A stretch of 64,000 nt of DNA, from positions 54,237,037 through 54,301,036 of the forward strand of contig NC_090280.1 of the NCBI RefSeq assembly GCF_037392515.1, read 5' to 3'. This DNA is from Haliotis asinina (taxonomy: Eukaryota). The number at the start of each line of letters is the position of its first letter. Positions within the stretch are counted from its first letter, which is position 1. Under the pieces are notes generated by a model. The model was not told the DNA's origin. It worked only from the letters and a program-made list of their open reading frames with translations, and searched no databases. The position numbers were made by a program, and so were the translations under genes. This document shows positions 23,861 through 39,880 of this stretch, one piece after another.

Positions 23861-24943
23861 GTACAAGGGTTGTGTTTTGTGTATTTATTTCATTACGTAT
23901 TTTACTGTAATTAGAAACTAGCATATTTCTGTAGTGAGTGAAGCCTTTACGTCGCATGGACACTATTTCAGTCCAAGTGAGTGAGCGAGTGAGTCCATCG
24001 CACATACATTTCAGCTAAACAGCCACAAGACCTTGTTTGCGCATCAATAAATACATTGGAGAACAAAAATAAATAACCGTCCTGAAATCCATATTTCATT
24101 ACAGTATCATTTCGGTTTTGCAGGTAAGTTGAAACTCACATGTGACTGTTGAAATTCAAGTAGATGGATTGTTTGTTGCTGTTGTTATTGACGATGTTGG
24201 AAAATGTTTGGAAATGCAATGATTGGATTATTGTAGAGGCGTGTAGTGTCGACTTGCTTATTTTCGCCCAGTTTTGTCCGTGTTTAATGAAACACGTGGC
24301 TGTGACTAATGGTGGTCATGGTCTGTTTGCAGTGTTAACGTACCGAGGAATTTTACTTTAAACAGAAAATTAAACCACATAAACCACAATTATGATTGCG
24401 AATCTTCATAATTTTACATTGCCAACTGAAACCATAAATCTCAGGATCGTATTCAACTTAGAAGAAAATTTGTTTAACAAACGATCACAGATTGAAATCG
24501 CTGTTTCGAATCGCAAACTGGTTTGCATTACAAGGGGGTAAGCGCAGCAGTTGGAACAGTGAAACAAATGCACGTGTGGCACGTGATAAATGTTAACTTA
24601 GACCAACCCTACATGTTCTAGGTGTTTCATTTGATGTGCTGACGCCGCGTCCCCCTTGTAAAACACACAAATGAAGCGATAGAGCGATTTGAAACTACGA
24701 TCGTTTGTTAAACAATTTTTATTCCTTAGTTGAATAAAGTTCCGAAATTTAAATGTTCAATGGGCAAGGTAAAATTGTGCGTATTCGCAATCGTAATTAC
24801 ACTTTAATTTCTTTGATTTACCGTTTGGTTTATAGTGAAACCCATGGGTACGTTTTCACTGCCAACAGACTACAGGTATTGGCAATACAGAGTTTGCGGC
24901 ATAAAGATAATGATGATTGTTGACGATGGTTTCCTCTTCCCAG

Positions 24944-25316: not shown

Positions 25317-25321
25317 AAACC
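25317..25321. repeat. Target-site duplication, left copy ('aaacc')
   Basis: Exact 5-bp direct repeat also found at 39625-39629, immediately outside both TIRs. A 6-bp reading is possible with one mismatch (gaaacc vs taaacc). Confidence 0.6.
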
Positions 25322-25642
25322 AGTAGTATAGGGAATGATAGTTCTGGACCACTTTCACAAAATGCCTCTACAAAGCCTTATTTAGTAAATAAGGCTTTGG
25401 TTGGGCCATTAGCTCTTGCTACTATTACCCCTACTACAAAATTACTGTGCCTTGGTAGGAGGTAACACTGTGCCGTACGGTACGATCAATAATTCTTCTC
25501 TTACAAATCCCCTACCCGGCCCATCCCTCAAGTAGTACAAGTTAGGTTCGTCGGCTTTCATATCCACTTTATCTATGTTGTAAGTTTTGACTGACCATAT
25601 AGGATCGGTGGCCCGCTTACGGCTATCGCCCTCGTGTTCCCC
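25322..25642 (+). repeat. Left terminal inverted repeat of the Polinton (321 bp)
   Basis: Reverse-complement of 39304-39624 with only a few mismatches, e.g. gcccgctt/gctcgctt, taaataagg/taattaagg and gggccattagctcttgc/gggctattagctcatgc (about 98% identity). Begins with AG. Confidence 0.85.
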
Positions 25643-26410
25643 CGGCTGGTATAGATACCTCACTAGGGCCCTATCTGGTATCTGTTTCTCCTTCCCACGC
25701 AATGGAGCGGCCGACTCTGCAACTATTGATTTTAGTTTGATAGCGTCTGCCGGTTTCTTACCGGTGAGACGGGTGACTTCATGGTTGATTGCCGACACCA
25801 CCTTGGGTAACCTCGTGACCCATTCAGTCGATCGTTTTCCAGGGGTGGCCATCTCCCTAGCATACTGATAGCCGAACAAGCGTTCAGCCAAAGTCCTATT
25901 AAATCTCTCAACTATGGCTTGGCTGCGATGGGCTCCGGCCGTGCCACGCCTGACCTTTGTATCGTGTTTGGCTAGCAGTTGTGACACGGCACCCATGAAC
26001 TCCCGTCCGGGGTCAACTTGCAGCTCTGTTGGCCACGTCAGCGGACTGCGTTTGTATATACGTTCGAATCCTCTGGCTACCTGGGCCGAATCTTTCGTGG
26101 TCAAGGGTTCGGCTTCCTTGTAACGACTGGCTACATCCACTACGGTTAAGGCATACTTGTACCTCTTGTCGTGGGGTAGGAACAGTAGGTCTGCCTGGTG
26201 AATGCTATTAGGTGTGTTAATACCGAACCTCCTTCTAGGCACGTAGCGTGGTGCCGGCAAATAGATCTGCCACAGGGCTTGTTTTTCAAGCCACGCTTTG
26301 GCTTCCTCCGGGGGTACTCGCGCTAGTTTAGCTAGCTTATCTACTGCGCTAGCTCCTTTCCAGTACCCACGCGGGCTGTAGTAAATAGCCTCAAATTTTT
26401 TCATGTCCAT
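25442..26410 (-). CDS. Retroviral-type (rve) DDE integrase, 322 aa
   Basis: ATG start. DDE triad context: ...SIHQADLLFLPHD..., ...ELQVDPGREF... and ...SQAIVERFNRTLAERLF..., which is the typical rve catalytic core. The 3' 200 nt lie inside the left TIR. Overlaps the pPolB stop by 20 nt. Confidence 0.85.
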   Translation of the reverse strand: MDMKKFEAIYYSPRGYWKGASAVDKLAKLARVPPEEAKAWLEKQALWQIYLPAPRYVPRRRFGINTPNSIHQADLLFLPHDKRYKYALTVVDVASRYKEAEPLTTKDSAQVARGFERIYKRSPLTWPTELQVDPGREFMGAVSQLLAKHDTKVRRGTAGAHRSQAIVERFNRTLAERLFGYQYAREMATPGKRSTEWVTRLPKVVSAINHEVTRLTGKKPADAIKLKSIVAESAAPLRGKEKQIPDRALVRYLYQPGEHEGDSRKRATDPIWSVKTYNIDKVDMKADEPNLYYLRDGPGRGFVREELLIVPYGTVLPPTKAQ

Positions 26411-29400
26411 ACGCGTATGTGTTTATACCATTAATAGCTATCCAACGTTTCGTGTCCATAGGCGATAGGGACGTCTTGTTTATAGTCAGTCCGTATATCT
26501 TATGCCCATCACTTCTAAGTGTGTTCATTTTATGTCTAAAGGTACGGGTCTTGAACAGGGCTTCCTTGAATCTGGCGTGTTTGATGTGTTGTTTCACCAC
26601 ATACTTCTTAACCCCCTTCGCCTTCCGGATCTCACTATTGTCGGCTTTCGGTATGGAGTACATCTTAGGTCTCAAACCTATGTACTCGGCTATGGGCGTG
26701 CCAGCACACTCGTCCTTCATCTTACCTAGGACCTTTTTATTTACAGTACTGTGTATGGCATGGGTCTTAGGGTAATCGCTGGTGTCGTATAAATCGAGGT
26801 GTTTTTTCATGTCCTCGTACACGTCCTCGGTTCGAATCTCCATCAGCAGGGAATCCGTGTCAGTGTACAGCACTTCACACCTGTCGCCGTACTGTTTCTT
26901 GAGCTCGTTGTAGTAAAAGTCGTACATCAGGTGTTTGGATAAATCGAGGATGCTCATCCCCACGTAAACAGGCCGGTTAAATTTTATGTGGCTTTTCTTC
27001 ATGTGTAGGGCAACCAGGTTGTCTGTGAATATCTTACTACGGTTGAATGCCGGACTGGCTATCAATCTCCTGAGCTTGTCTTCCTCACTCGACCGAACCA
27101 GCTTCACGGTCACGCGTTTCCTCAGGTTCTCCATAGTCTTACCAAACACCGAGTTGTTCATGAGCTTGTAGAGATTTTTCTCAAAATCACTGGTGGCTTT
27201 TTTTCGTAGGTCTGTGTTCATTCTGATGTAGGGCTCCATCCATGGACTCTGGTCGAACATGAGCACCCTGTGTATTTTGGTCAGCCTCATACCCAACGAC
27301 AGGTACAGCTGTAGGTTGCGATAGTGAACGATGTACTTGGTCTTATTTATTAAGTTAGGCACGAGTTTTTCAACGTCTGTCACACGCCCACCTGACAAGT
27401 TATGTTGGTACTCAGACATCCAGTCTGGGTTAACCCTCATACGTTCGGGTGCAAGGGGATAGCTGTTGTGCGATGTGTGTAATTCCTTGGGATACTCTAA
27501 GTCAACTTCGAGGATATAACCTTTGTTCGAATCTGGTGCAACCCCCATAACATCAACGTGGGGTACCCATTCGAATCCCCCTGTAGGTAGATACTGACTC
27601 ATGGCCCAGCCGTAGAGGTTGTTTGCGTCGAGGTAGAGAATGTGATTGGTTGGTTTGTTAGGATCGTAACCTTTCACGTATTGATTATTTGCTTTCGCGT
27701 ATCGTTTGGATGCCATGGAAATCCCACCTCGCAAGCCTTTCTCAATGAATAGGTGCATGTCGTAATCTGTGAGCAATTCTAAATTAACTCCGGTCTTTTT
27801 AAGCAAGGCGTCCCACGACAGACCTGGGCTGGTGTAATACCATGCGGGGTCGAGTTTATACTGCTTTAAACATGTCTGCCGAAACGTTTCAAACACGTCG
27901 GCTAACAGCAGTACATCTGTCCTCAAGTACAGGTCGTGATAATCACCCAGGTTCTTACAACCCAGTTTATTCCATACGTTAGTCGCGTGCGAGTAATCAT
28001 CTCGTGAGACGGACGCCTCATTCAGCTTGCTATAAAAGCAGTCAATAGGGGGTAGTCTGGTCTCGGTGAACTTGGCCCAACTATCCATGTACTCATAGGG
28101 GTACACACCCTTCCTCATAAGCAGGGGTCTAGTCTCGGCGTCTGTGTATCGATCGGTGATAGGGAAGGTATTGTTGGCCTTGACCAGACTGTCGAGTGAC
28201 GACAGGAGGAACTGAAACGAGTCAATGAACCTAAGTCCGTTTAAGCTGAAGGAGATGTATCTTTCCATGTTGTTGGGGATGCACGTTATATTACCATCGA
28301 TTTTCGCGATGGCCTGCATGATCAAGTGTGAGTCGTACCCTCTCAAGTTGTGAAAGACAACGGGGATGTTTATTGTCTTAGGGTTGATTTTAAGCTTGAG
28401 GTTGCACGCGTTGTGAGCGGCGCCTCTATACTTACCAGTTATGTGGCAGTGATCTCTCACCGAATCACCGTTAAGTGGTGAGTCGCACACGTGACAGTTA
28501 GTGCTACTAGCGTGAGCTAGCCTGTCGGCTCGGGTCATACGCATGGGAGCGATTCTATACAATGCATTCCTAATAATTTTTTCTTCCTCCTGCAAACACT
28601 TTAGAAACCTTTCAGCCGCGTCAGGGCCCCTATACACTACCGGAGCTTTAGTTTCCCCGTCACAACGGACGACAATGTATCCAAAACCGCAGGCCTTATG
28701 TTCCTGGGTTTTGTGGGTGAAGCTACCACCACTGGGGGCCTCGCCGGCGGCAGCCACTAAGGCTTCGAAGTCGGCGTATATGATGTAAGGTACAGACATT
28801 TGGTTCTTGTGGTTACTGAATTTTAGGATATTTTCACCTTCCTTAGGCATGTCGACTCGTATGGCTGTCTGCCCCACACCTTGGCAATCATCCCGGTGGG
28901 ATTCTAATAAATCAGCTCGACTGAAACCGTGTAGGCATCGTACACAAAAGTGTTTTTCCCCAACGTGTTTCGACTGGTCGTGCAACAACCGGCTGAGATG
29001 TTTTATCCACGTGTAGTGATACTTTTCACCTCGCTGGATCATGAATATATTGATAACTTGGCAATCCTTCACCGTGCTGACCCTGTGTACTATTGTTGTG
29101 TTACCTTCATACCCAAAGACATTTATAGCCAGATTATTCTGTTTTTCTACTTTAGTGATCTGGGATATGGGGGTGGGTTCATCTATACCATCCCAGTTGA
29201 GCCCATCGTCTTGGGGATAGCTAGAAAGCCTATCTGAATGAGTGCCAGCTGGAAATAAGGCTGACCTGATAGCTAACCTCAGGCAATCATTTCCTCTATT
29301 CTTAACGTTTACTATGGCATGTTTGTTCCTATAGTAGGGAGGCAAGGCTAGGTATGACCCGCCTCTGAACGGCACGTAGTTAGCTATGTCTAGATAGACA

Positions 29401-30086
29401 TTATCGATTTTATCTACAGCCCACCCGGACCCCAAGTGTGTGTAGCGTTCTAGGTATTCTCGTATCTGCTGAAAACTATTATCGATTGATGCGTCAATGG
29501 TCTCTGCATGTGTGACGACCTCTTGTTGACCTCGGAAGTAAGGCTGAACATACTCAGTGGTACTCCCAACCTGCTTATCGAGCGACATTTTCACTGTGAT
29601 CTGAAACTTGATACTTCCTAGATTATTTAGTTCCTGGTTGACCTTATCAGCTATCAGAGGCTTGATATCTATAATGTCTATGTTTCTATCAACGTGCATG
29701 CGCCAACCTCTCAAATAGTTGCCTACAGCGCGCTCAGTGCTCACGAACTGTAGGTCAATAGCTCTATTCTGCCGTAATAATTCTAAAAGCTGTGGTTTTC
29801 TCATACGGGAATACCCGCCTAAACCCAAATCGTGTGCCTCGGCTTTCAGTTGTTTTACAGTGGGAGGTTTTGCTACGGGGGCATGTGATAACAATGCGGT
29901 TAACCCGGCTCTCCCCAGGTTTGAATAACCCGTGTGCCCAAGCTGTTTTGCTTGAGCTTTTAATTGTTTTACCGTAGGAGGGGCTTCTAAACCTAGTAAT
30001 CTCAACAATGCTGACTTCCGCATTCTAGAATACCCGATCACACCTCTCTGTTTTGCGACCCTCTTGAGCTCGCGCACAGTAGACAT
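26391..30086 (-). CDS. Protein-primed family-B DNA polymerase (pPolB), about 1231 aa
   Basis: Exonuclease motifs: Exo I IIYADFEALV, Exo II VFHNLRGYDSHLI, Exo III YHDLYLRTDVLLLADVF. Polymerase motifs: A YLDANNLYGWAM, B KLMNNSVFGKT, C VLYTDTDSLLM. The N-terminus has three tandem SAP-like repeats of about 35 aa. The ORF track extends to 30110 using a TTG start; the first ATG is at 30084-30086 (MSTVRELKR...). Confidence 0.9.
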   Translation of the reverse strand: MSTVRELKRVAKQRGVIGYSRMRKSALLRLLGLEAPPTVKQLKAQAKQLGHTGYSNLGRAGLTALLSHAPVAKPPTVKQLKAEAHDLGLGGYSRMRKPQLLELLRQNRAIDLQFVSTERAVGNYLRGWRMHVDRNIDIIDIKPLIADKVNQELNNLGSIKFQITVKMSLDKQVGSTTEYVQPYFRGQQEVVTHAETIDASIDNSFQQIREYLERYTHLGSGWAVDKIDNVYLDIANYVPFRGGSYLALPPYYRNKHAIVNVKNRGNDCLRLAIRSALFPAGTHSDRLSSYPQDDGLNWDGIDEPTPISQITKVEKQNNLAINVFGYEGNTTIVHRVSTVKDCQVINIFMIQRGEKYHYTWIKHLSRLLHDQSKHVGEKHFCVRCLHGFSRADLLESHRDDCQGVGQTAIRVDMPKEGENILKFSNHKNQMSVPYIIYADFEALVAAAGEAPSGGSFTHKTQEHKACGFGYIVVRCDGETKAPVVYRGPDAAERFLKCLQEEEKIIRNALYRIAPMRMTRADRLAHASSTNCHVCDSPLNGDSVRDHCHITGKYRGAAHNACNLKLKINPKTINIPVVFHNLRGYDSHLIMQAIAKIDGNITCIPNNMERYISFSLNGLRFIDSFQFLLSSLDSLVKANNTFPITDRYTDAETRPLLMRKGVYPYEYMDSWAKFTETRLPPIDCFYSKLNEASVSRDDYSHATNVWNKLGCKNLGDYHDLYLRTDVLLLADVFETFRQTCLKQYKLDPAWYYTSPGLSWDALLKKTGVNLELLTDYDMHLFIEKGLRGGISMASKRYAKANNQYVKGYDPNKPTNHILYLDANNLYGWAMSQYLPTGGFEWVPHVDVMGVAPDSNKGYILEVDLEYPKELHTSHNSYPLAPERMRVNPDWMSEYQHNLSGGRVTDVEKLVPNLINKTKYIVHYRNLQLYLSLGMRLTKIHRVLMFDQSPWMEPYIRMNTDLRKKATSDFEKNLYKLMNNSVFGKTMENLRKRVTVKLVRSSEEDKLRRLIASPAFNRSKIFTDNLVALHMKKSHIKFNRPVYVGMSILDLSKHLMYDFYYNELKKQYGDRCEVLYTDTDSLLMEIRTEDVYEDMKKHLDLYDTSDYPKTHAIHSTVNKKVLGKMKDECAGTPIAEYIGLRPKMYSIPKADNSEIRKAKGVKKYVVKQHIKHARFKEALFKTRTFRHKMNTLRSDGHKIYGLTINKTSLSPMDTKRWIAINGINTYAYGHEKI

Positions 30087-30144
30087 CGTGTTTACACCTA
30101 AGAGAACCAATGTCTAATTGGTTCACAGTAAGGGGAGGTAACTC

Positions 30145-30405
30145 TTAAGTGGCTATCTTGAGCAGTCGCCTACGTTCTTTTATGTAGCCTTTTTTATTCT
30201 CGTAGATGAGTTGATGTCTGACTACGTTCGCTCCGTGAGCTTTACATAGACAGTAGTGTCCTTTAACCCCGATACCACACACAGAACACGTGTAGTTAGG
30301 ACTTCCCATATGGAAACAACAGAACCCCTGATTCCTGCATTTCCTACCACAGGCCTCGGTCTTCCCCATAAGTATGTATTCGCATCGGTATGGAGCGGGT
30401 CTCAT
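30145..30405 (-). CDS. Small Cys/His-rich protein, 86 aa (putative zinc-binding)
   Basis: ATG start. 11 Cys and 5 His in 86 aa, with CxxC-like pairs (CSVCGIG, CLCKAHG). Tightly packed between pPolB and the next ORF. Confidence 0.4.
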   Translation of the reverse strand: MRPAPYRCEYILMGKTEACGRKCRNQGFCCFHMGSPNYTCSVCGIGVKGHYCLCKAHGANVVRHQLIYENKKGYIKERRRLLKIAT

Positions 30406-30424
30406 GTTTACTTATATAGGTATT

Positions 30425-30850
30425 TTAGTTTAATTGCTTAGCAACCAACGCAGTAGCTGCTATACCCAACACTATGAAGCCCAGTTCACGATTCATTTGT
30501 CCCTTGGATGGTGTGTAGTACTGAGCGAGTGTGGGTTTATTGAGCGGTTCCAATTGTTTACCAGTTAGTAGATAGTATTCTTTCATTGCTTCATCGACAT
30601 CGTAGAATGTTTTAATGGCATGGTTTTCACGCTTGAGCTGTTCATTAATAAAATCGATCCTCTGGAGGCGTTTTTTAACGTACTCGTCCTGTGCCTTTTG
30701 TAAGTTCTCAGTAGCGAGATCGTGCCGCTTCCTTTCTTCCTGTATTTCAGCCGCGTGATCATCTCGTAGTTTCGAGAAGAGGAAATTACTCCCGGAAAAT
30801 GCCAGGGCATTCACTAACGCCCCACCGACCATCATAGCTATCGTGGCCAT
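30425..30850 (-). CDS. Hypothetical protein, 141 aa, with N- and C-terminal hydrophobic segments and a central charged coiled-coil-like region
   Basis: ATG start. The ORF fills the gap between neighbours with 8-19 bp spacers. Confidence 0.4.
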   Translation of the reverse strand: MATIAMMVGGALVNALAFSGSNFLFSKLRDDHAAEIQEERKRHDLATENLQKAQDEYVKKRLQRIDFINEQLKRENHAIKTFYDVDEAMKEYYLLTGKQLEPLNKPTLAQYYTPSKGQMNRELGFIVLGIAATALVAKQLN

Positions 30851-30858
30851 CCCTATAT

Positions 30859-31086
30859 TTATTTCATTATATTATCAGGTATTATTCCTTGTTTTACTAG
30901 GATGTCTTTTGTGGCCATCGCCATACCAAGGTTCATTATGAGCATACCCATATCCTGCAGGTTGAAATCTAGCTTGATAGTTGGTTGTTTAAGCACCATT
31001 TTAGTCAACCGAGCGTACCCTACTGCTAGACTGGCTACCACTGTGGCGTGGTATGCGTCGTTGACGAACGTTTTCCCCTCAGACAT
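30859..31086 (-). CDS. Hypothetical small protein, 75 aa
   Basis: ATG start and tight packing. No recognisable motif. Confidence 0.25.
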   Translation of the reverse strand: MSEGKTFVNDAYHATVVASLAVGYARLTKMVLKQPTIKLDFNLQDMGMLIMNLGMAMATKDILVKQGIIPDNIMK

Positions 31087-31113
31087 TATGTATATGATAT
31101 AAAATATTTTAAA

Positions 31114-31482
31114 TTATAACATGATATGCGGGTCTACCATGGGGGATACCCCCATACCCCCACTGTTGTGGGTGGGGGATACCCCCACACCCCCACTGTT
31201 GGGGGTGGGTGGTGGCTCACTGTGGGAGGGTACCCCCACGTATAACCACGAGATGGCCAAGGCAGCAGTTACACCTACAGCCAACAACAGTCGGGTTGGA
31301 TTGGCCACTTTATGTTGGTTACACCACCGTTTTTTACCGGCAGCTACTCTCTTAGGATTCTTCTGTCTGGTTACTGTTGAAGTGGTCTCCACCGTCACTG
31401 GTTCCTGTGAACTCACTGTTGGGGGTGTGGGGGGTACCACCACTGGGGTCTCCTCCACTGGGGTTTCCTGTGCAGCATCCAT
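31114..31482 (-). CDS. Pro/Thr-rich protein with one predicted transmembrane helix, 122 aa
   Basis: ATG start. PTP-rich N-terminus, a hydrophobic stretch LLLAVGVTAALAISWLYVGV, and an internal direct repeat PPPTPNSGGVGVSP/THNSGGMGVSP encoded by a GGGGG..CCCCC-rich DNA repeat. Overlaps the 3' end of the upstream ORF by 130 nt in another frame. Confidence 0.35.
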   Translation of the reverse strand: MDAAQETPVEETPVVVPPTPPTVSSQEPVTVETTSTVTRQKNPKRVAAGKKRWCNQHKVANPTRLLLAVGVTAALAISWLYVGVPSHSEPPPTPNSGGVGVSPTHNSGGMGVSPMVDPHIML

Positions 31483-32050
31483 CTATACTATTATTATTAT
31501 TCTTTCTCTCAAATTGGCAATGTTTTGCCGTGATAATCGCCGCCGTCACTGGAGCCAACAACATACCATATTTGTGGTACAGCCCGCAGCTGATAGAGCT
31601 CACGGCGTGTTCGATAAAAGGGTCTTTCTCGAGGTCCTCCCACAGGTAAAGTCGGCGCTCTGGTGGAATGGGAAGGAAGTGTGATACAATACCGGTGTAT
31701 ATCTGGGTCATAGCCGATCCTATTGTCTTTGTCATTTCTGCTCCGAGCCGGGACTCGTATCTAGCGTATAGCTTATCGATTTCTTCGGCTGACATTTTGT
31801 GAATTTTATCCGGAGTGTAGTCTCCAAAGTAATGTTTGGCTTTGCCGCCAACAGCCAACGCCACCAGTTTCTCTCGCTTGTCATCAGTGGGGCCTGCCGT
31901 ACCCCCAGGTACCAACTGTTCAAGCAATTCCTCACACTCCATCTTATAATATAACAAGTAAGATTTAGTTTTAACTATATAATACCCGATGCAGACAAAA
32001 CACAGAGAAATGAAGGTTAAGTTGCACACGATAAATACTTCAAATATCAT
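31352..32050 (-). CDS. Candidate adenain-like (Ulp1/C5-family) cysteine protease, 232 aa; assignment tentative
   Basis: By-eye resemblance to the adenovirus protease catalytic residue context: HFL (cf. HWL), RLYLWEDLEKDPF (cf. YLFDPFGF) and SSISCGLYH (cf. SAACGLFC). The spacing is shorter than in adenain. A protease is expected next to the ATPase in Polintons. Confidence 0.3.
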   Translation of the reverse strand: MIFEVFIVCNLTFISLCFVCIGYYIVKTKSYLLYYKMECEELLEQLVPGGTAGPTDDKREKLVALAVGGKAKHYFGDYTPDKIHKMSAEEIDKLYARYESRLGAEMTKTIGSAMTQIYTGIVSHFLPIPPERRLYLWEDLEKDPFIEHAVSSISCGLYHKYGMLLAPVTAAIITAKHCQFERKNNNNSIDGCCTGNPSGGDPSGGTPHTPNSEFTGTSDGGDHFNSNQTEES

Positions 32051-32141
32051 AGCTATATGCTTAGCTTTGCTTAGCTTTGCTTAGCTTTGCTTAGCTTTAG
32101 CTTAGCTTTGCTTAGCTTTGCTTAGCTTTGCTTAGCTTTGC

Positions 32142-32764
32142 TTAGCACACTCTATATGCTACTGGTTGGTCGGTCTTTAGTACGAGCTTAGCGTGTTTAG
32201 TTTCAGCGAGCTGTTTCTTCACCCGTTCCCGTTCTAATTTACTCATCACATCGTTCTCTCTCAAACACTCCTCAAACGAATCCCTGTCCTTGCAGTGAAA
32301 TAAGGCCACCCATCGCGTCTGCTCCCTGAGGTCTTTCAACACCGAGTTGAACTTCTGCGTTAGCACCCAGACGCTGTGATTTGCATGCCGGCCGGAGAAG
32401 GCCAGGTACGATAGCATGTCTCTCTTTTTTGTTATCTCGCGATTAGCGCTGCAGTCGTCTAATATGAACAGCGTCGGTTCTCCTTTAAATTTCTCGTGAA
32501 GAGCTTTCAACCAGTCCTGCAGGCGTGTTCCAGGGTCGATTTTGTGTACGTCCGGGTCATCACCCAAGGTCGCGCGTACGTTTTATTCATGCTCAGAGTA
32601 GGGCACATGATAACGATGTTATCGAACACATCCTTGTAATAACCCTCTAACATATCCAACACGAAAACGGTCTTCCCACAGCCAGTCTGCCCGCACACTA
32701 TGGCGCAGTGTGGGTCAGTGGGTAACCCCAGGGGGGTGTGGGGTGTGGGGGGGGTACCCCCCAT
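32142..32764 (-). CDS. FtsK/HerA-superfamily (poxvirus A32-like) DNA-packaging ATPase, disrupted by a 1-nt frameshift
   Basis: Walker A CGQTGCGKT in the 85-aa ORF 32507-32764. Walker B TLFILDDC in the 141-aa ORF 32142-32567 (TTG start). The frames differ by 1 nt. Adding one T to the T4 run at 32581-32584 (A4 on the coding strand) fuses them: ...MCPTLSMNKNVRATLGDDPDVHK... Confidence 0.8.
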
Positions 32765-34020
32765 CAGTAGATGGCTTGCACGAATCTCCCATTGTCTATA
32801 TTAAGTTGCGCGTCCATAATAACGTACAGATATAATTTCAACTTACCAGCAGTTTGAGCCTTCTTAGTAATCTGGATGGTTATCCCTTCGCTGCCGTTAT
32901 CTATACGGCGCCCGCTACCGTGCAGTTTATCATCATCCGTGGATCGCATGTCCAACCATAGGGCGTACTTGGTGGTCAGGTATTCACCGATCTGCACGGA
33001 GCTTAGGTCCAGGTCCTTTGTTATATAATCCCCCACTGGTAGCTTTTTTATCTCATCCCACTGCTGGTGTGGTCTCATACCATGACTGAACAGCTGGTTG
33101 GGCACGCCCTCGATGGTCACTTCCACCTTTTCAATCTCGGGGTTGAAAAACTTCTCGCTGTCCCTCTGGAATGGCTCGTAATCCTCCACGGGGACGACCA
33201 GGATACCTTTCATCGATCTCGCCGGCACGTTCAGGTTGATATTCCACACAGTGTCGCTCTTATCTTGCACGACTGATCTATGTCTCAGTACGCGATCGTA
33301 CAGGATAGCCATCTTCCCAGAGTACTGGCTTCGAACCTGCCTGGCCAGCTCCGGGCTAGTGACCATGTCGAACTCCAGAGAGATGTTGTCTATGGCATAA
33401 CTGGCCTCATCACCGTTCGGAGTACGCACTACTTTGCTATAGTCGTTAAACGTGAGCTCGTATTCGAGCCTATCACCCAGCGCGGCCTGGTAAAACGGCG
33501 CGTGTCCCGTGAGCAACTCGAAGTCGAGCGGCACGCAGAATCGATTCCCGTATGCTAGAGCGATGGCCTTTTCACCGGCCGATAGCTTGTCTTGCTGGTC
33601 TTGCGTGAAGACATACCCTATGCGCGCCCGGGTTGATTTGCTGATACCCTGGTACACATCATTGACTCGTTCTCCATCGCTTTTCCAGAGATCCTTGTAG
33701 CAGTGAAACACGTCGCTGTCGTCGATGCTCAGCACCTCGTTACCGCTGATCTTGACGGTCGTTTTCTTGATGATAGCTCGCCCCACGTTCCGCACTAGCT
33801 CGCGTTTATCGTTGACGGAGGTCAACGTGATATTGAACGCCAGTCGAACAGTGCCTGGTACAATGAGGTCATTCTCACCAAGGTTTGGAAATCTAACCAG
33901 CAGAGTTTGATTCTGGTCTATCTTGCTGGGATTATTGGTGATGGTCACCGACTGGCGCACGGCTCTGGCACCTAATGGCTCTCTCAATTTTCTGAAAGGA
34001 TCTAATTTTCTGCCGTACAT
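32764..34020 (-). CDS. Candidate major capsid protein (double jelly-roll type expected), 418 aa
   Basis: Largest unassigned ORF, immediately upstream of the ATPase with an ATGA stop/start overlap. Size fits Polinton and virophage major capsid proteins. No motif-level proof. Confidence 0.45.
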   Translation of the reverse strand: MYGRKLDPFRKLREPLGARAVRQSVTITNNPSKIDQNQTLLVRFPNLGENDLIVPGTVRLAFNITLTSVNDKRELVRNVGRAIIKKTTVKISGNEVLSIDDSDVFHCYKDLWKSDGERVNDVYQGISKSTRARIGYVFTQDQQDKLSAGEKAIALAYGNRFCVPLDFELLTGHAPFYQAALGDRLEYELTFNDYSKVVRTPNGDEASYAIDNISLEFDMVTSPELARQVRSQYSGKMAILYDRVLRHRSVVQDKSDTVWNINLNVPARSMKGILVVPVEDYEPFQRDSEKFFNPEIEKVEVTIEGVPNQLFSHGMRPHQQWDEIKKLPVGDYITKDLDLSSVQIGEYLTTKYALWLDMRSTDDDKLHGSGRRIDNGSEGITIQITKKAQTAGKLKLYLYVIMDAQLNIDNGRFVQAIY

Positions 34021-34053
34021 TGTTATATAAAAGAAATATATTTTTAATACTAA
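34021..34053. promoter_or_regulatory. 33-bp AT-rich divergent intergenic spacer with a TATATAAAAG TATA-like box
   Basis: Lies between the minus-strand capsid ORF start (34020) and the first + strand ATG (34054). Sequence ttatataaaagaaatatatttttaatactaatg. Confidence 0.35.
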
Positions 34054-34364
34054 TGGATGAAGATATACCTATGGATGAGATGCCGGGCGCTAGTGCCCAG
34101 GCATATGATGAGCAGGAGACCTCATTTACTAGTTCACCATTGAACCAAGAACTCTTGGAAACAACGGTAAATGATTATTTCGAAAGTTTAAGAAGAGATA
34201 AAAACTACGTTGAACCACAGGGTCGATACCATAAGGATTTTTTTATTGATACAAAGGGTGTTCTACGCCTTAAGTCTGACCCAGGGGTTGACCTCTTTAA
34301 CAAGAGCAATAAAAAACCACTGGCCTTGTCAACTCTAGCCAGCCGCTATGGTGTAAAAATCTAA
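34054..34364 (+). CDS. Hypothetical acidic protein, about 103 aa (ORF track begins at 34020 with a TTG start)
   Basis: First ATG at 34054 (MDEDIPMDEMPGAS...). Starts the + strand block, divergent from the capsid gene. Confidence 0.3.
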
Positions 34365-34366
34365 AC

Positions 34367-35200
34367 ATGAATGATTACGGTGGTGCAATACCTAAGGCCG
34401 TTAAAGAAGATCTGCAAGCTACCAGATCCCACCTCACCACTAGAGATGAAATGACACCACAGCGTGCTACAGAAGCCTCAGACAGCATAGAAAAACTGTT
34501 GAGCACCTACTGGGACAAACCGTTACCGGGGTTTGACTTTCCGGTAAGGGAACTGCGCGGCTTAGACGAAGCCGTGAAACGCGTGCGTGGAGAACTCGTG
34601 AACAACATGGGGAAACTGAACGAAATCGACGAGCACATCGCTAGGGAAAAAACCAAACTCAACGAAACTGAAAACGATGATATGAAGCGCCGTATCAATG
34701 AACGACTACGCGATTTAGAAGACGAGAGACGTACACGATTGGAATCCGCTTCCTCGAATCGTGAACAGCTTCGATCCCAGATCAGTCGTATTCGGGAAAC
34801 AATCGATAGAATACTGAATGAGGATACAACTTTAGCCAACAGGATTCGGATATTGTTCCGGGAGCAAGGGATCACCATCGCCAGTATTCTGACTGCATTG
34901 GGTTTTATCATATCAACCCTGGTGGTGTCACTGACGGGGGGAACCCCCACACATGGCGGAGGGGGAACTCCCAGCGGTGGTGGGGGTGTTAAAGACTGGA
35001 TTAAAAAACTCGGGGAAGGCCTAGCTAAACTGGCTGGTAAAGCCGCCGAAGCCCTTCCCGGCATACTGGGTAGCATCGTCTCGTGGTTGTTGAGCGCTCT
35101 GTCTAAAACTGCCATGTGGCTCAGTGAAAACCTGTGGGCAGCCATCGTCGCCGTGGCGGGTCTGGTGTACGTAGCGGCTAAGAAATCTTTAACCAAATAA
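34367..35200 (+). CDS. Coiled-coil and Gly-rich membrane protein, 277 aa
   Basis: ATG start. Long charged heptad-like region (REKTKLNETENDDMKRRINERLRDLEDERRTRLE), then a hydrophobic helix, a GGTPTHGGGGTPSGGGG linker and a second hydrophobic C-terminal region. Confidence 0.4.
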   Translation: MNDYGGAIPKAVKEDLQATRSHLTTRDEMTPQRATEASDSIEKLLSTYWDKPLPGFDFPVRELRGLDEAVKRVRGELVNNMGKLNEIDEHIAREKTKLNETENDDMKRRINERLRDLEDERRTRLESASSNREQLRSQISRIRETIDRILNEDTTLANRIRILFREQGITIASILTALGFIISTLVVSLTGGTPTHGGGGTPSGGGGVKDWIKKLGEGLAKLAGKAAEALPGILGSIVSWLLSALSKTAMWLSENLWAAIVAVAGLVYVAAKKSLTK

Positions 35201-36341
35201 GTCCCAAAGCTACCCCACCAACCACTAGGGCTGTTTTATTATCAATATGCTGCTGTACCCCCACATGCACATGAGGGTGTGTGGGGGACACATGAACTTT
35301 AGGCTCCGGGGGTGGCGCCACTATACCCTTTTCACGTGGTGGGATGTGTGGGATATAGGGGGTGTTAATATCGGGGTTGATACCCAACTTTTGGTCCGCC
35401 GTGGCTATGACTATTTTATTGTTATAACCCACCACTTTTTTTACTCTCAGTTGCATATCACTCGGAGCCATGTACAACCCCACGCCGAACACGTAGTTGA
35501 CTTTCGATCTGGCGTATTCTAACACGTTTTGGTAGCGTTCGATGGCCCGCGGGAGATCAACTGGAGAATTGATAGCATCCTCAACGTTGGAAACGAACTG
35601 TGTCTGAGCGTCGTAAGCAGTTCCCTTACCGAGGATGTTGGAACGCGTCATCGACTGCGCACCCAACAGCGCCCACACGTACGTTCGAATCGAGTCGTTC
35701 AAGCGTATTGTACCAGCACGAGTGAATTCTTTCGATGTTTTTGAGATCATTTTAGTCCAGGCTGTGGCTGCATCAGGATTGGTTTGCTTTATACAGCTGA
35801 CATGGATCTTTTCATTCGTTGTGGGGCCTGTAAATGTATGACGGTTTGGGTTGTATGAACCATCTTTAGAACCGGCCTGATATGTTCCGGACCTGTAGAA
35901 GTACACGAGAACTATACCGAGACCATGGTTCACACCAGGAAGGCGAAAGTCTTTATTCGTTGGAATCTCAAACTCCCCACAAATACGTTCATAAGCGCGT
36001 CTATCATAGGGGTTATTCGTCATACTCCACGCTTTATCTTGGGGAAGAGGAGCACTTATTTCCTTCAATATTCGTCTCGTTTGATAATAAATATGAAACA
36101 AAATAACCGCCTTACTCAGTTCGTCTATACCGTAGTCTGGTGTCACACCCGACCCTGTCGTCGCACACCACACAGCAAAGTTTAGTTGGTTCTGCCAAAA
36201 CTGCATTGGGTTTTGATTCCAGTTTACCATCGCCTGCGCGTTATTAACGGACACGATATATTTTTCAAAGATATTAATAAAGGTTGTTTTAAACCCCGTA
36301 CCATCTGCATTCACCACGATTTTCAAGTGTGCTAAATCCAT
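35178..36341 (-). CDS. Hypothetical protein, 387 aa, with a C-terminal hydrophobic anchor; possible structural (capsid or penton) protein
   Basis: ATG start. Intact long ORF inside the element, C-terminus ...ALVVGGVALGLIWLKIS. No diagnostic motif recognised. Confidence 0.4.
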   Translation of the reverse strand: MDLAHLKIVVNADGTGFKTTFINIFEKYIVSVNNAQAMVNWNQNPMQFWQNQLNFAVWCATTGSGVTPDYGIDELSKAVILFHIYYQTRRILKEISAPLPQDKAWSMTNNPYDRRAYERICGEFEIPTNKDFRLPGVNHGLGIVLVYFYRSGTYQAGSKDGSYNPNRHTFTGPTTNEKIHVSCIKQTNPDAATAWTKMISKTSKEFTRAGTIRLNDSIRTYVWALLGAQSMTRSNILGKGTAYDAQTQFVSNVEDAINSPVDLPRAIERYQNVLEYARSKVNYVFGVGLYMAPSDMQLRVKKVVGYNNKIVIATADQKLGINPDINTPYIPHIPPREKGIVAPPPEPKVHVSPTHPHVHVGVQQHIDNKTALVVGGVALGLIWLKIS

Positions 36342-36370
36342 ATTATAATATATAAATTATATATTATAAT
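36342..36370. promoter_or_regulatory. 29-bp AT-rich divergent spacer (attataatatataaattatatattataat)
   Basis: Lies between the minus-strand ORF start at 36341 and the + strand ORF start at 36371. Pure A/T with TATA-like runs. Confidence 0.3.
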
Positions 36371-37024
36371 ATGTACATAACACTTCCAGGAATAACGAGC
36401 GGTGAGGCCGTTCAGCTGACGCACGCGATCGATAACACGTCAGGTCAACTCGAAGTCGCACTCTGCGATATCACCTACCTACCGCAATGGACTAACATCA
36501 ACGCCAGCAACAATAAGCTGTTCGTCAGTGGAACTCGCAGTCAGATAACTGACGGCTACTACAGCGTGTGCTCTCTAAACGACGAGGTCTTCAAACCCCT
36601 GGGAGCCGAACTCAAGATGAACGACTCAAACGGTACAGTGGTGTTAATCAACAACGGAAGAACCTCCTTGAGGCTAGGCCGACCATTAGCGAGGATACTC
36701 GGTATGTCTCCTGACGAGATAAAACCAACAACAACCGTCACAGGCACGAAGTTACCCGACCTAGTACCGTACCGAGAGCTGTACATTCATCTCGATCAGG
36801 TGAGCACAACGTACAACATTCAAGGAGGTCACCCTTCCACTATACTGAGAGCAGTGCCGGTGAAAACTGAGAAATTCAACGACGGTAGAACCGAGTCATT
36901 TTCACCACGGCAGTATAAGAGATTAACCCAGGGCAACATACCTGAGCTGACAATATCGGTGTTAGATATAAATCATAATCCTGTAAATATAGGATACCTC
37001 AGCTTAACGCTTCACGTAACATGA
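36371..37024 (+). CDS. Hypothetical protein, 217 aa; size compatible with a single-jelly-roll minor capsid (penton) protein
   Basis: ATG start. Its stop overlaps the next ORF's start in an ATGA (37021-37024). Confidence 0.35.
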   Translation: MYITLPGITSGEAVQLTHAIDNTSGQLEVALCDITYLPQWTNINASNNKLFVSGTRSQITDGYYSVCSLNDEVFKPLGAELKMNDSNGTVVLINNGRTSLRLGRPLARILGMSPDEIKPTTTVTGTKLPDLVPYRELYIHLDQVSTTYNIQGGHPSTILRAVPVKTEKFNDGRTESFSPRQYKRLTQGNIPELTISVLDINHNPVNIGYLSLTLHVT

Positions 37025-37935
37025 CCAGCGCACAAGGGCCCGGAGTGAAAAAATGCGTCAATATCGGGATCTCCGACCTCGGAGACACACGCGGTTTCGA
37101 CGCTCCCGGAGTAGATGGTAAATCGTACGCCTTGCAACTGAAAAACAACATTTACAAACGCGTTGAAATCCCCTCCGGTGGAACCCTAAGTGATATGATA
37201 GATACCACAAGAGCAACAGTCAACACTAAGTACACCCTTGTCAACACCGGTGATGACAACTGGGTAATATACCCATCGTTCGGGGGTAAACTGTTCGACT
37301 TAGACGATGTTGAGAGCACTACCGTCGTCAAAAACAAACCATATATGCTCGTCTTCACCGAAGATGACAAGTGGGTGTTGTTACCCGATAAAGACGACTG
37401 GTTGATCAATATTAGACTCATCTCCCCTTACGTGTTCACAGATAACAAAGACAACCACCTAAACAAAGTCGTGAACAATGGAACCCTGCTCGTGGCTTAC
37501 GTCCCAACTCAAAGACGTAGCGTAGTCGTCAGCCCAGCCAACACTGCGGTAGCCCACATGCTATCGAGTAAACCGGCCGTACAAAACGTGAAATTGCAGT
37601 TGGTGTCTGAATTCGAAGGCGTGACCAAGGTACTAGATAATATAACGATAAACGGAACACTGATCATCAAAGTCTACCTAGGGGAACCATCGGGGAATAA
37701 TATCGAGATCGTGAAGGGGATCAAACTCGGGTGGGGTAAACAACATCAGTTTCAAATTTGTAATGTTTACGTGCGGGGGGGTGTCGACCCCAAGACCAGT
37801 CTACAGGGGGTCAACGTGATCGTGGAAAATAAGATATCACTAATCAATATCTTCCTGCCTGACAACATACACTTCATGGGTATGAAGTTAACCCCTGAAT
37901 TATTATCAGAAAACCAGTTGGAAATTATATCATAA
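37021..37935 (+). CDS. Lineage-specific protein P1, 304 aa; paralogue of the next ORF
   Basis: Shares an N-terminal LGDTRGFDAPG motif, a W(L)INI(R)L(I)SPY(V) block and a C-terminal LSENQLEIIS with ORF 37946-38644. Confidence 0.45.
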   Translation: MTSAQGPGVKKCVNIGISDLGDTRGFDAPGVDGKSYALQLKNNIYKRVEIPSGGTLSDMIDTTRATVNTKYTLVNTGDDNWVIYPSFGGKLFDLDDVESTTVVKNKPYMLVFTEDDKWVLLPDKDDWLINIRLISPYVFTDNKDNHLNKVVNNGTLLVAYVPTQRRSVVVSPANTAVAHMLSSKPAVQNVKLQLVSEFEGVTKVLDNITINGTLIIKVYLGEPSGNNIEIVKGIKLGWGKQHQFQICNVYVRGGVDPKTSLQGVNVIVENKISLINIFLPDNIHFMGMKLTPELLSENQLEIIS

Positions 37936-37945
37936 TAGTATAATA

Positions 37946-38644
37946 ATGACTAGTCATCATCCCAACACTACGCTTAACGACCTGGGAGATACGGAGGGAT
38001 TCGATCAGCCTGGTGAGGAAGATGAATTATACATCCTGCACTTCAAAGACAACGTGTACAGACGGGTGTCGTTATCAGATTTTAAAGAGCCCAAATGGCT
38101 GATCAACTTAACACTCACCTCACCTTATATCACAATAAACATAAATACGTGGATGATCTCTAAGATTAGGAACAACGGTATCTGGCCCGGGGATTTCATT
38201 CCGGAGAGGGAATTAGCATTCAAGATAGCTACTGCTGGTGCTGAAAAAAATATATTAAATTCTGGACCAAAAAATAAATTAACATTTAGCTATAATACTC
38301 ATAACATAAATCTTGTTAATAGAATATTCTCCCCTTTCACACTCATCATAGAAGTCTTCTTTACGTCTTTACTACATGAAAACATCTCAAGAGTACACCA
38401 AATTTTACCCGGGGTGTCAATACACTGGTATGACGAACAACACACATTCAAATATTGTCGTATTGTTATACAACAGAATACCACGGGTCCTATAAACAGC
38501 TTAATAAGCCTCAGTGGGGTTTTTATTACAACAGAAAAGTCTATTAGCCTCTCACCTATTACCCTGACTAGTAGTCTAAAACTTGTAGACTTCAAATTCA
38601 TTGATAAAGTATTAACTGAAACCCAATTAAAATATCTTTCATAA
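37946..38644 (+). CDS. Lineage-specific protein P2, 232 aa; shorter paralogue of P1
   Basis: LGDTEGFDQPG, WLINLTLTSPYI and a C-terminal LTETQLKYLS. Tandem duplicate of the previous ORF. Confidence 0.45.
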   Translation: MTSHHPNTTLNDLGDTEGFDQPGEEDELYILHFKDNVYRRVSLSDFKEPKWLINLTLTSPYITININTWMISKIRNNGIWPGDFIPERELAFKIATAGAEKNILNSGPKNKLTFSYNTHNINLVNRIFSPFTLIIEVFFTSLLHENISRVHQILPGVSIHWYDEQHTFKYCRIVIQQNTTGPINSLISLSGVFITTEKSISLSPITLTSSLKLVDFKFIDKVLTETQLKYLS

Positions 38645-38657
38645 TATATATTATAGG

Positions 38658-39275
38658 ATGGGTCTGTACCCAGTCGTAGAGGAAGTAGCGAAGACGCTGG
38701 AAACCGTAGATGGGTTCCGCTTGAGGCAGTTATGTGATGTGAAACGTCAACTAGAACAAGACCGTGACACGCGGAAAGCTCTATGTAAGAAGTACAATAG
38801 AGCTTTCAATATCGTGGACGGGGCTGACACTACCCTTATGGCAACCAGCATGGGACTAGGGGCGGCAGGCGTTGGGTTGTTAACCACCATCGTGGCTGCA
38901 CCTATAGTGCTAGGTATTGAAATAACGGCTGGGGTGACAGGGTTGGTAGGGTTGGCGCTTAAGTTAGTATCACGCAGACTTAATCGTAAGGCATTGAAAC
39001 ACGACGAGATCAGGGTTCTGGCTGAAGCAAAGCTGAACACAGTGAGTGAGCGTATTTCCACGGCACTCTCTGACAGTAAGATCTCAGAAGAGGAGTTTCG
39101 TTCAATCCTCTCTGAACTCACAAAATATAACGGAATGAAACAAGATATTCGGTCCAAGTCTCGTAAGTCTGCTATCAGCGAGGACGAGAAAAAAAAGTAC
39201 ATAGAACAGGGAATACAAAAAGCCCAGCAAGCCTTTATTACGAACACCAAAGAGATCATAGGCGGTTCACGTTAA
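38658..39275 (+). CDS. Hypothetical membrane protein, 205 aa
   Basis: ATG start. Central hydrophobic pair (GLGAAGVGLLTTIVAAPIVLGIEITAGVTGLVGLAL) flanked by charged regions. Last ORF before the right TIR. Confidence 0.4.
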   Translation: MGLYPVVEEVAKTLETVDGFRLRQLCDVKRQLEQDRDTRKALCKKYNRAFNIVDGADTTLMATSMGLGAAGVGLLTTIVAAPIVLGIEITAGVTGLVGLALKLVSRRLNRKALKHDEIRVLAEAKLNTVSERISTALSDSKISEEEFRSILSELTKYNGMKQDIRSKSRKSAISEDEKKKYIEQGIQKAQQAFITNTKEIIGGSR

Positions 39276-39303
39276 ACTGTTTCCTCGATATAAACATGAC
39301 ATA

Positions 39304-39624
39304 GGGGAACACGAGGGCGATAGCCGTAAGCGAGCCACCGATCCTATATGGTCAGTCAAAACTTACAACATAGATAAAGTGGATATGAAAGCCGACGAAC
39401 CTAACTTGTACTACTTGAGGGATGGGCCGGGTAGGGGATTTGTAAGAGAAGAATTATTGATCGTACCGTACGGCACAGTGTTACCTCCTACCAAGGCACA
39501 GTAATTTTGTAGTAGGGGTAATAGTAGCATGAGCTAATAGCCCAACCAAAGCCTTAATTACTAAATAAGGCTTTGTAGAGGCATTTTGTGAAAGTGGTCC
39601 AGAACTATCATTCCCTATACTACT
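39304..39624 (-). repeat. Right terminal inverted repeat of the Polinton (321 bp)
   Basis: Reverse-complement match to 25322-25642 and ends with CT. On the + strand it encodes a copy of the last 66 codons of the integrase (...GEHEGDSRKRATDPIWSVKTYNIDKVDMKADEPNLYYLRDGPGRGFVREELLIVPYGTVLPPTKAQ*). Confidence 0.85.
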
Positions 39625-39629
39625 AAACC
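39625..39629. repeat. Target-site duplication, right copy ('aaacc')
   Basis: See left copy. Confidence 0.6.
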
Positions 39630-39689
39630 TGTTGTCTAGGGTTCAACCTTTTATTCTTTTATTGCGAGTTTTCCGATGATCCAGCATGG

Positions 39690-39880
39690 CCCCAATTTTT
39701 CGAAACAAACTTAAGTTTTTACTCAATTCTCAAACTGAGTTTCATAATTCGAAACAGCTGAATTTTGTTCCGATTTCAGTTCAATCTGAGAAATGCGTTT
39801 TTTCAAATTTGAGCAAAATGTGAGAGTTAGGTCAAAACTCAAACTTAAGTTTGTTTCGAGAAATCGGGGCCTGGAACATT
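39690..39880. repeat. 33-bp inverted repeats flanking about 130 bp (ggccccaatttttcgaaacaaacttaagttttt / ctcaaacttaagtttgtttcgagaaatcggggcc); hairpin or MITE-like
   Basis: Direct. Lies 60 bp outside the Polinton right end. Confidence 0.5.

Follow-up and report, generated by a model that had tools for sequence, protein, structure and literature searches.

A young, near-complete copy of a probable endogenous Maverick/Polinton element with a 5-bp target-site duplication and no detectable adenain-type protease

The locus raises the question of whether a gene-dense block in otherwise non-coding DNA is an integrated virus-like element, where exactly it ends, and whether it could still move or form particles. 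In the 64-kb window, which denotes here the whole stretch of DNA analysed, 15-17 ORFs cover 94.6% of an enclosed length of 14.3 kb, in agreement with the approximately 16 tightly packed ORFs counted over 14.3 kb in a preliminary description of the locus, and the longest ORF outside the block has at most 177 aa. The GC content is 0.44-0.52 within the block versus 0.34-0.42 in the flanks. An Rfam search of the entire 64-kb window gave no match. The block is collinear with a 14.4-kb relative (L001) and with more than 20 other loci, and the relatives were found in marine-invertebrate genomes and metagenomes, including Elysia and Actinostola assemblies.

The ends of the block are defined by target-site duplications (TSDs) and terminal inverted repeats (TIRs) as follows.

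25317..25321, no strand: left TSD AAACC, identical to 39625-39629
25322..25642, plus strand: left TIR of 321 nt, starting with AGTAGTATAG; a stretch of ~35 nt at its outer end is conserved in L001, L011 and L083
39304..39624, minus strand: right TIR, where 39304-39504 repeats the integrase 3' end in non-functional form
39625..39629, no strand: right TSD AAACC, identical to the left TSD

The two TIR arms, 321 nt each, are identical at 317 of 321 positions (98.75%) with four mismatches, and the element terminates in AGTAG...CTACT, which upholds the length of 321 bp, the identity of about 98% and the AG/CT ends claimed in the preliminary description. The inverted-repeat relationship between 25322-25642 and 39304-39624, whose absence had been named in advance as grounds for rejecting that description, was present on alignment. 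The first 29 nt of the TIR occur twice in the 64-kb window, at the two TIR ends, with 0 occurrences expected by chance. The direct repeat aaacc, also claimed earlier, was verified as an exact 5-bp TSD lying directly outside both TIR ends; a 5-bp match at fixed boundaries has a chance of approximately 1/1024, and the flanking bases do not match when a 6-bp TSD is read at the element ends. This differs from the 6 bp usually quoted from the original Polinton definition. Another difference from Maverick/Polinton elements is that the 3' end of the integrase gene lies within the TIR here: 25442-25642 corresponds to its last 66 codons and stop, and the L001 integrase matched 39286-39489 in the right TIR region (tblastn). 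The L001 contig is uninformative on the TSD, as its flanks do not match.

Related elements (L011) were assembled as stand-alone contigs of ~14.5 kb ending at or within the TIRs, as would be expected if such sequences were free viral or episomal genomes, or contaminants misjoined to host sequence in the present case. However, the exact 5-bp duplication is found at both junctions, 25 kb of non-coding, repeat-bearing sequence extends on each side of the element, and L083, a genomic copy in the chromosome-scale assembly of the animal Elysia crispata, ends in the same AGTAGTATA terminus and shows a TSD of equal length (TCTTA). These observations make a non-integrated origin extremely improbable. 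No further copies, solo TIRs, fragments or empty site were detected in the 64-kb window, and the mobility of the integrated element is therefore deduced from its structure.

The genes for integration and replication occupy the left part of the element.

25442..26410, minus strand: rve (retroviral-type) integrase, 322 aa (Pfam rve 2.1e-10, 41 bits, cut-off 32.6)
26391..30086, minus strand: protein-primed PolB (pPolB), 1231 aa, assigned by family homologues and motifs
30145..30405, minus strand: 86-aa Cys-rich (zinc-ribbon-like) protein, with homologues adjoining pPolB in relatives

The integrase, which is 73% identical to that of L001, retains an intact D,D35E triad (D74, D133 and E168, with the 35-residue spacing), and together with the Pfam match this supports the earlier claim of an rve integrase with an intact DDE triad. 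The enzyme used the conserved AGTAGTATA...TATACTACT ends of the element and cut the target in a staggered way, as the 5-bp AAACC duplication shows.

The assignment of pPolB relied on its family. The search at E<=1e-3 collected 353 homologues, and PF03175 was matched by 22 of the 29 aligned full-length homologues (48-63% identical), with a best value of 3.4e-21. The residues of Exo I-III and of Pol motifs A, B and C are invariant or nearly so in the family alignment and are present in this copy. The N-terminus carries three SAP/Rho_N-like repeats, followed by a presumed terminal-protein domain and a presumed vOTU domain with conserved C276 and H365, an architecture taken from PMC11161782. Downstream are Exo I-III, an EndoVII/HNH insert (aa 526-572), and Pol motifs A, B and C in this order. 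In this copy itself, Pfam did not detect PF03175 even at E<=10, and Pfam and PHROGs matched only Rho_N and Endonuclease_7. The previous claim of a pPolB with all motifs thus stands as to family membership and motifs by way of the homologues, but not as to a profile match of its own. Judging from the family, this polymerase would copy the element, with its N-terminal part serving as the priming terminal protein. Homologues of the 86-aa protein adjoin pPolB in L001, L004, L011, L012, L045 and L083, and the protein itself had no match in Pfam.

The genes assigned to packaging and the capsid, apart from a variable slot treated last, are the following.

32142..32764, minus strand: packaging ATPase of the A32/FtsK type, interrupted by a 1-nt frameshift at ~32555-32560
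32764..34020, minus strand: ORF
36371..37024, plus strand: 217-aa conserved protein, inferred candidate penton (minor capsid protein)

The ATPase has the Walker A motif GQTGCGKT and the Walker B motif FILDD, and after repair of the frameshift it matched Pox_A32 with 9e-9 and 35.6 bits, above the curated cut-off of 22.8, which confirmed the packaging ATPase proposed before. In relatives it is a single ORF of 210-221 aa. The major capsid protein (MCP) is a double jelly-roll protein according to its predicted fold. PDB sequence searches with single proteins and family profiles, covering the MCP, pPolB and the families of the 217-aa protein and of the 232-aa protein at 31352..32050, returned nothing meaningful, and a profile/pattern scan of IMG/VR with the MCP found no relatives. 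The 217-aa protein belongs to a family of 253 cluster representatives, and in 20 loci its gene invariably sits beside that of the 387-aa protein. This family had no Pfam, PDB-sequence or hhalign match, its profile-profile comparison with the MCP for a jelly roll gave no signal, and no functional names occurred among its cluster members. The protein is a candidate penton. The morphogenetic module, in which the capsid protein and the ATPase are the firmly recognised parts and the penton and fibre are candidates, could package linear DNA into an icosahedral particle, which would probably contain a membrane.

The TIRs, the TSD and the gene content (rve, pPolB, A32 ATPase and a capsid gene) therefore led us to assign the block, with high confidence, to the endogenous Maverick/Polintons (class Polintoviricetes), inserted in the nuclear genome of a eukaryote, most likely a marine invertebrate. 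Maverick/Polinton elements of animals were reportedly described by Kapitonov and Jurka in 2006 and by Pritham et al. in 2007. The present element shares with them the size (14.3 kb here), TIRs of a few hundred bp, 5'-AG...CT-3' ends and a short TSD, as well as a PF03175-family pPolB with a homing-endonuclease insert, the rve integrase, the A32 ATPase, the double jelly-roll MCP, compact and near-overlapping ORFs, and the occurrence in invertebrate genomes. It adds one more example to a well-known and abundant type of element that is common in marine invertebrates. Homologues of pPolB and the core genes are present in Oculina, Actinostola, Elysia, Mactra and Lineus assemblies, and the Actinostola genome holds a divergent syntenic relative. 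Being nearly complete and having a precise TSD, this copy provides the exact ends, the terminal motif AGTAGTATA and the 5-bp duplication for a widespread marine-invertebrate Maverick lineage. Surveys of stony corals and bivalves (PMC11131425; bioRxiv 10.1101/2025.04.19.649669) likewise describe, in their accessible parts, endogenous polintoviruses as abundant integrated elements of marine-invertebrate genomes with MCP, mCP and ATPase and often with TIRs; the same parts do not describe the present gene order or the orphan core proteins given below.

30425..30850, minus strand: conserved 141-aa protein, hydrophobic at both ends with a coiled coil between them (26 homologous ORFs)
30859..31086, minus strand: small hydrophobic protein of 75 aa, conserved in related loci (28 homologous ORFs)
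31114..31482, minus strand: Pro/Thr-rich protein of 122 aa with a single TM segment; only its position is conserved
31352..32050, minus strand: 232-aa conserved protein with an N-terminal TM segment and a helical core (44 homologous ORFs)
34053..35200, plus strand: ~390-470-aa conserved coiled-coil membrane protein, with a 1-nt frameshift at ~34355-34366 in an A5 run
35178..36341, minus strand: 387-aa conserved tail-anchored protein, with a fold without known match
38658..39275, plus strand: conserved 205-aa protein with a TM segment and a coiled coil, final gene ahead of the right TIR

The homologues of the 141-aa protein in related loci show 50-57% identity; its N-terminal TM segment was predicted, and the C-terminal one was read from the sequence. 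The 75-aa homologues are always located directly upstream of the 141-aa gene, and those of the 232-aa protein (31352..32050) always downstream of the ATPase. The 122-aa protein had no sequence homologues in related loci, where its position is filled by ORFs of 108-182 aa. The product of 34053..35200 has an N-terminal domain followed by a coiled coil, and a Gly/Pro-rich linker leads on to TM helices at the C-terminus; it gave only weak coiled-coil-type matches in Pfam, and is encoded in 23 relatives by a single ORF of 389-468 aa. A confident structure model was obtained for the 387-aa protein, and neither PDB nor BFVD contained a match to it. The 205-aa protein has 14 homologous ORFs (35-61% identity) at the same terminal position. 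Several of these membrane-anchored core proteins are conserved, and their roles are presumably in the morphogenetic module. On comparison of the related loci, 37021-38644 is the only variable slot and the other unassigned genes form a conserved syntenic core of the lineage. The lineage-specific cargo proposed earlier did not hold up, since these genes are mostly shared with relatives. The resulting gene map, in which most 'unknown' genes are conserved core, aids annotation of the very large Polinton load in mollusc, cnidarian and annelid genomes, and helps to spot host-derived Polinton contigs mis-binned into bacterial MAGs.

No Ulp1/adenain-type protease was detected in any ORF of the element or in the syntenic relatives, and accordingly neither the candidate protease nor the full virus-like gene set of the preliminary description was confirmed. 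The 232-aa protein (31352..32050), which had no Pfam or PDB sequence match, was rejected as the protease because its family alignment contains no invariant His and it is a helical TM protein. This cysteine maturation protease is a usual hallmark of Maverick/Polinton elements and is present in most members of group 1 of the two MavPol groups (bioRxiv 10.64898/2026.06.19.733378). A further difference of the present element from Maverick/Polinton elements is its conserved membrane-anchored set, including a 387-450-aa protein with an unmatched fold. In the discovery of adintoviruses (Starrett et al. 2021, PMC8502044), Adenain served as the bait, and these viruses encode it. They share with this element the animal association, pPolB, rve, the FtsK/A32 ATPase, a hexon-like MCP, terminal inverted repeats and accessory membrane-active proteins, but differ in having Adenain. 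No matches to Adenain, PLA2/PLA2X, gasdermin-like/GasderminX or cupiennin-like proteins were found among the element ORFs. Mavirus-type virophages and polinton-like viruses have in common with it the double jelly-roll MCP, the A32 ATPase and a small linear dsDNA. Mavirus also carries pPolB and rve, but possesses a Ulp1 protease gene and is dependent on a giant virus.

We tentatively consider, as a possibility well short of an even chance, that the element is part of a large, undelineated animal Maverick/Polinton clade that lost or never had the Ulp1/adenain protease and has conserved membrane-anchored virion-module proteins instead, with a capsid module possibly closer to polinton-like viruses. 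Its shared set may include the tail-anchored 390-450-aa new-fold protein and the ~400-aa coiled-coil multi-TM protein. If such a clade exists, its particles would contain a membrane and have a different maturation or entry mechanism. An unlikely reading is a hybrid that combines a Polinton pPolB and rve module with a capsid module lacking the protease, the latter being nearer to polinton-like viruses (Aquintoviricetes) than to either of the two main Maverick-Polinton groups; polinton-like viruses usually lack the pPolB and rve pair, and its presence here is atypical for them. Two points are of note for virologists, namely that the maturation protease is apparently absent and that a highly conserved protein has an unmatched fold; neither overturns current understanding.

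The insertion is young, as the TIRs are 1.25% divergent and the element has no in-frame stop codons, in line with the recent insertion suggested before. The claim that only the ATPase was damaged was not confirmed because two genes are frameshifted, namely the ATPase and 34053-35200. As these 1-nt frameshifts break the packaging ATPase and the ~400-aa membrane protein, the copy as assembled cannot produce virions by itself. The integrase and polymerase are intact, and mobilisation would thus still be possible, especially if the missing functions are provided by intact copies located elsewhere. Errors in the assembly could account for the frameshifts, and the recently active or inducible agent of the preliminary description is possible only in that case or with complementation in trans. 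A fully intact, inducible and virion-producing copy, with both frameshifts being assembly or homopolymer errors, would fit the single-nucleotide nature of both lesions, the A5 run at one of them, where relatives are consistent with A6, the full length of the remaining ORFs relative to relatives, and the high TIR identity. Nevertheless, the ATPase lesion lies outside any long homopolymer and the four TIR mismatches show some mutation after insertion, and we regard an intact copy as unlikely and a young, damaged one as the better description.

The variable slot contains two genes in this copy.

37021..37935, plus strand: 304-aa protein, candidate fibre/spike, paralogue of the next gene
37946..38644, plus strand: 232-aa paralogue of the 304-aa protein, a tandem duplication specific to this copy

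The two products are paralogues with an E value of 2e-17, and the 304-aa protein showed 37% identity to a 290-aa protein of L001. The slot holds a single gene in L001 and L002 and is empty in several relatives. Its occupant in L004 matched the N-terminal domain of the phage T7 tail fibre (1e-11).

The inverted repeat reported in the preliminary description proved to be real and lay exactly where it had been placed, at 25322-25642 and 39304-39624, so that this structural observation was fully confirmed; the interpretation as a Polinton/Maverick was likewise correct. The two arms, 321 nt each, differed by four mismatches (98.75% identity), and the element termini were 5'-AGTAGTATAG...CTATACTACT-3'. 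AAACC directly flanked both arms on the outer side, and as a 6-bp reading failed (GAAACC versus AAACCT, no match), the target-site duplication (TSD) was 5 bp. The terminal 29 nt of the terminal inverted repeat (TIR) had no further occurrence in the window, with a chance expectation of zero, nor was a second copy or fragment of the element found within the window. Between the arms, 15-17 close-packed ORFs covered 94.6% of the sequence, and the remainder of the 64-kb window held no ORF longer than 177 aa. The GC content was 0.44-0.52 in the element versus 0.34-0.42 in the flanks.

Loci of relatives were collected from contigs of homologues of the major capsid protein (MCP), giving L001 and L002, and by a metagenome contig scan, giving 80 more. 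The complete relative L001 (14.4 kb) had the same terminus as the H. asinina element; its proteins were 37-73% identical and its genes collinear, except that the integrase gene was inverted. The following gene order was kept across more than 20 loci.

Conserved gene order
1: 205-aa protein
2: variable slot
3: 217-aa protein
4: 387-aa protein
5: ~400-aa protein
6: MCP
7: ATPase
8: 232-aa protein
9: gene conserved in position only
10: 75-aa protein
11: 141-aa protein
Then: module of 86-aa protein, protein-primed PolB (pPolB) and integrase, with orientation varying among loci

A more divergent element with this order was found in an Actinostola sea-anemone assembly (MCP 22-32% identical). The genes previously regarded as lineage-specific cargo are therefore mostly the conserved core of the lineage, and only the slot at 37021-38644 is truly variable. 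Elysia crispata carried an 8.1-kb derivative (L083:9320-17425, JAWDGP010002226.1) with a perfect 223-nt TIR, the terminus AGTAGTATAC and the 5-bp TSD TCTTA. Its perfect TIR and TSD suggest that a non-autonomous copy inserted there very recently. Since TSD length and terminus agree with those of the H. asinina copy, the 5-bp TSD and the AGTAGTATA end characterise the lineage as a whole and did not arise by chance in that one copy. The derivative retained pPolB and the 86-aa gene and lacked the capsid module. Two MCP homologues, P0135 and P0155 (64-65% identical), were deposited as MAG proteins of Candidatus Thiodiazotropha, bacterial symbionts of lucinid clams; they probably derive from Polinton contigs of the host that were wrongly binned as bacterial.

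Integrase, polymerase and ATPase genes of the H. asinina element
25442-26410, minus strand: integrase; Pfam rve 2.1e-10, above cut-off
26391-30086, minus strand: pPolB; family alignment and motif residues
32507-32764 (Walker A) and 32142-32567, minus strand: packaging ATPase, split; Pox_A32

The integrase retained D74, D133 and E168 with the canonical spacing of 35 residues. The TIR of 321 nt is longer than those of the relatives L001, L004 and L011 (~110-135 nt) since it has come to include the final 201 nt of the integrase gene, and the right TIR therefore carries a dead copy of the gene end (39304-39504). The integrase orientation also differed from that in L001 and L011. Among close relatives the terminal module occurred in three arrangements: integrase and pPolB were co-directional in the H. 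asinina element (25442-26410), convergent in L001 (L001:14764-15714), and convergent with the entire module inverted relative to L001 in L011 (L011:9264-10301), L012 and L045. These gene layouts suggest recurrent inversions close to the element end.

The pPolB ORF as listed starts at TTG 30110 and encodes 1239 aa, and residue numbers refer to this longer version. Of the profile matches expected from the preliminary description, that to rve was obtained, but PF03175 did not match the H. asinina pPolB alone even at E<=10; it was matched by 22 of the 29 full-length family members aligned (best 3.4e-21). In Pfam, the single copy matched only SAP/Rho_N repeats and, at aa 526-572, an Endonuclease_7 (HNH-like) insert that is present in 28 of the 29 members; Polinton pPolBs with endonuclease inserts are already known (PMC11161782). 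At E<=0.001, 353 homologues were found; for the best 120, identity across the aligned part was 47-69%. Invariant or nearly invariant in the family, and all present in the H. asinina protein, were the residues of Exo I (D447, E449), Exo II (N588, Y592, D593), Exo III (Y728, D732) and motifs A (D828), B (K982, N985, N986, G990) and C (D1084, D1086). Cys276 and His365, upstream of Exo I, were also conserved in the family alignment. By analogy with the vOTU protease placed upstream of Exo I by Krupovic et al., which would release the terminal protein (PMC11161782), this region is a putative vOTU protease. Three SAP/Rho_N-like repeats at the extreme N-terminus (aa 9-120, 29750-30086; Pfam Rho_N 2e-12), matched by Rho_N in just two of the 29 members (the H. 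asinina copy and one homologue), may be an added DNA-binding module at the terminal-protein end.

The ATPase had been described as the single damaged gene. Comparison with relatives identified two 1-nt frameshifts, one in the ATPase (~32555-32560) and the other in the conserved gene for a coiled-coil and transmembrane (TM) protein (~34355-34366), where an A5 run (gtaaaaatc) parts a 114-aa from a 277-aa ORF; this protein is one ORF of 389-468 aa in 23 relatives. The element contained no in-frame stop codons, and each frameshift could be an assembly error. When joined across the frameshift, the ATPase matched Pox_A32 at 9e-9, above the cut-off, and in relatives it is a single ORF of 210-221 aa. 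In the related locus L016, the interval from the 141-aa gene to pPolB contained a second, divergent A32-like ATPase ORF (L016:4819-5898, 360 aa, Pox_A32 2e-7). The capsid-protein table gave the following values.

Capsid-protein table
Faustovirus MCP: 20.4
PBCV-1 MCP: 19.5
ASFV p72: 18.6
Sputnik MCP: 14.6
mavirus MCP: 13.7
PRD1 P3: 11.1
adenovirus hexon: 10.6

The 217-aa protein, whose family comprised 253 cluster representatives, is a candidate penton on the basis of its size, strict conservation and place beside a fibre-like slot, an identity that no sequence or profile method confirmed. That slot held two paralogues in H. asinina (24% identical, E 2e-17) and, in L004, a 425-aa protein with a domain matching the N-terminal part of the phage T7 tail fibre (1e-11), which points to a fibre/spike-like host-recognition gene adjoining the presumed penton. 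Several core proteins had predicted TM segments, which would fit a virion with an internal membrane like that of PRD1 or PBCV. The anatomy of the element shows integration by a DDE integrase at conserved termini, with a staggered cut that left a duplication of 5 bp. As in the family, replication would be protein-primed and self-synthesising from the TIR ends, and the A32 ATPase would package into a double jelly-roll capsid.

A full gene set, as previously proposed, was not supported, since neither the ORFs of the element, sense and antisense, nor the further ORFs of its relatives yielded a detectable Ulp1/adenain-type protease. The Maverick/Polinton class is well known and common: it is extremely abundant in invertebrate genomes and makes up as much as 16% of certain bivalve assemblies (bioRxiv 10.1101/2025.04.19.649669), and a survey covers those of corals (PMC11131425). 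Recent work divides animal Maverick-Polintons into two groups, with a cysteine protease in most group 1 members, and reports that a few cnidarian and bivalve ATPases cluster with polinton-like viruses instead (bioRxiv 10.64898/2026.06.19.733378). Adintoviruses were discovered with Adenain as bait (PMC8502044), whereas the H. asinina element had no detectable adenain-type protease; a protease-less lineage would therefore have escaped that search. The probability that this lineage constitutes a distinct Maverick/Polinton variant without the protease is modest, and only the missing protease and the orphan-fold 387-aa core protein merit specialist follow-up.

The region 25-30 nt upstream of each ATG was scanned in 25317-39629, L001, L004 and L011. 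A TATA-containing AT-rich motif lay no more than 25 nt upstream of the ATG for 12 of the 15 element genes versus 11% in the background, and in 13/13 genes of L001, 8/12 of L004 and only 1/13 of the GC-richer L011. Nuclear Pol II genes do not usually have a promoter-like element so near the start codon. The spacer between the ATPase and 232-aa genes (32051-32110, minus strand) carried a short tandem (AAGCTAAGC)-type repeat upstream of the latter. Outside the element, two short hairpin-like inverted repeats, at 24461-24724 (~600 bp to the left; 48-nt arms, 83% complementarity) and 39688-39871 (~60 bp to the right; 31-nt arms, 94%), may be MITE-like elements. Tandem arrays typical of eukaryotic satellite DNA lay 10 kb downstream, at 50301-53219 and also at 47823-48929 and 54402-54632: a 70-bp satellite (~42 copies, 91% matches, very strong GC skew of +0.52) and adjoining arrays with periods of 26, 52, 78 and 126 bp, and also 36 and 72 bp.
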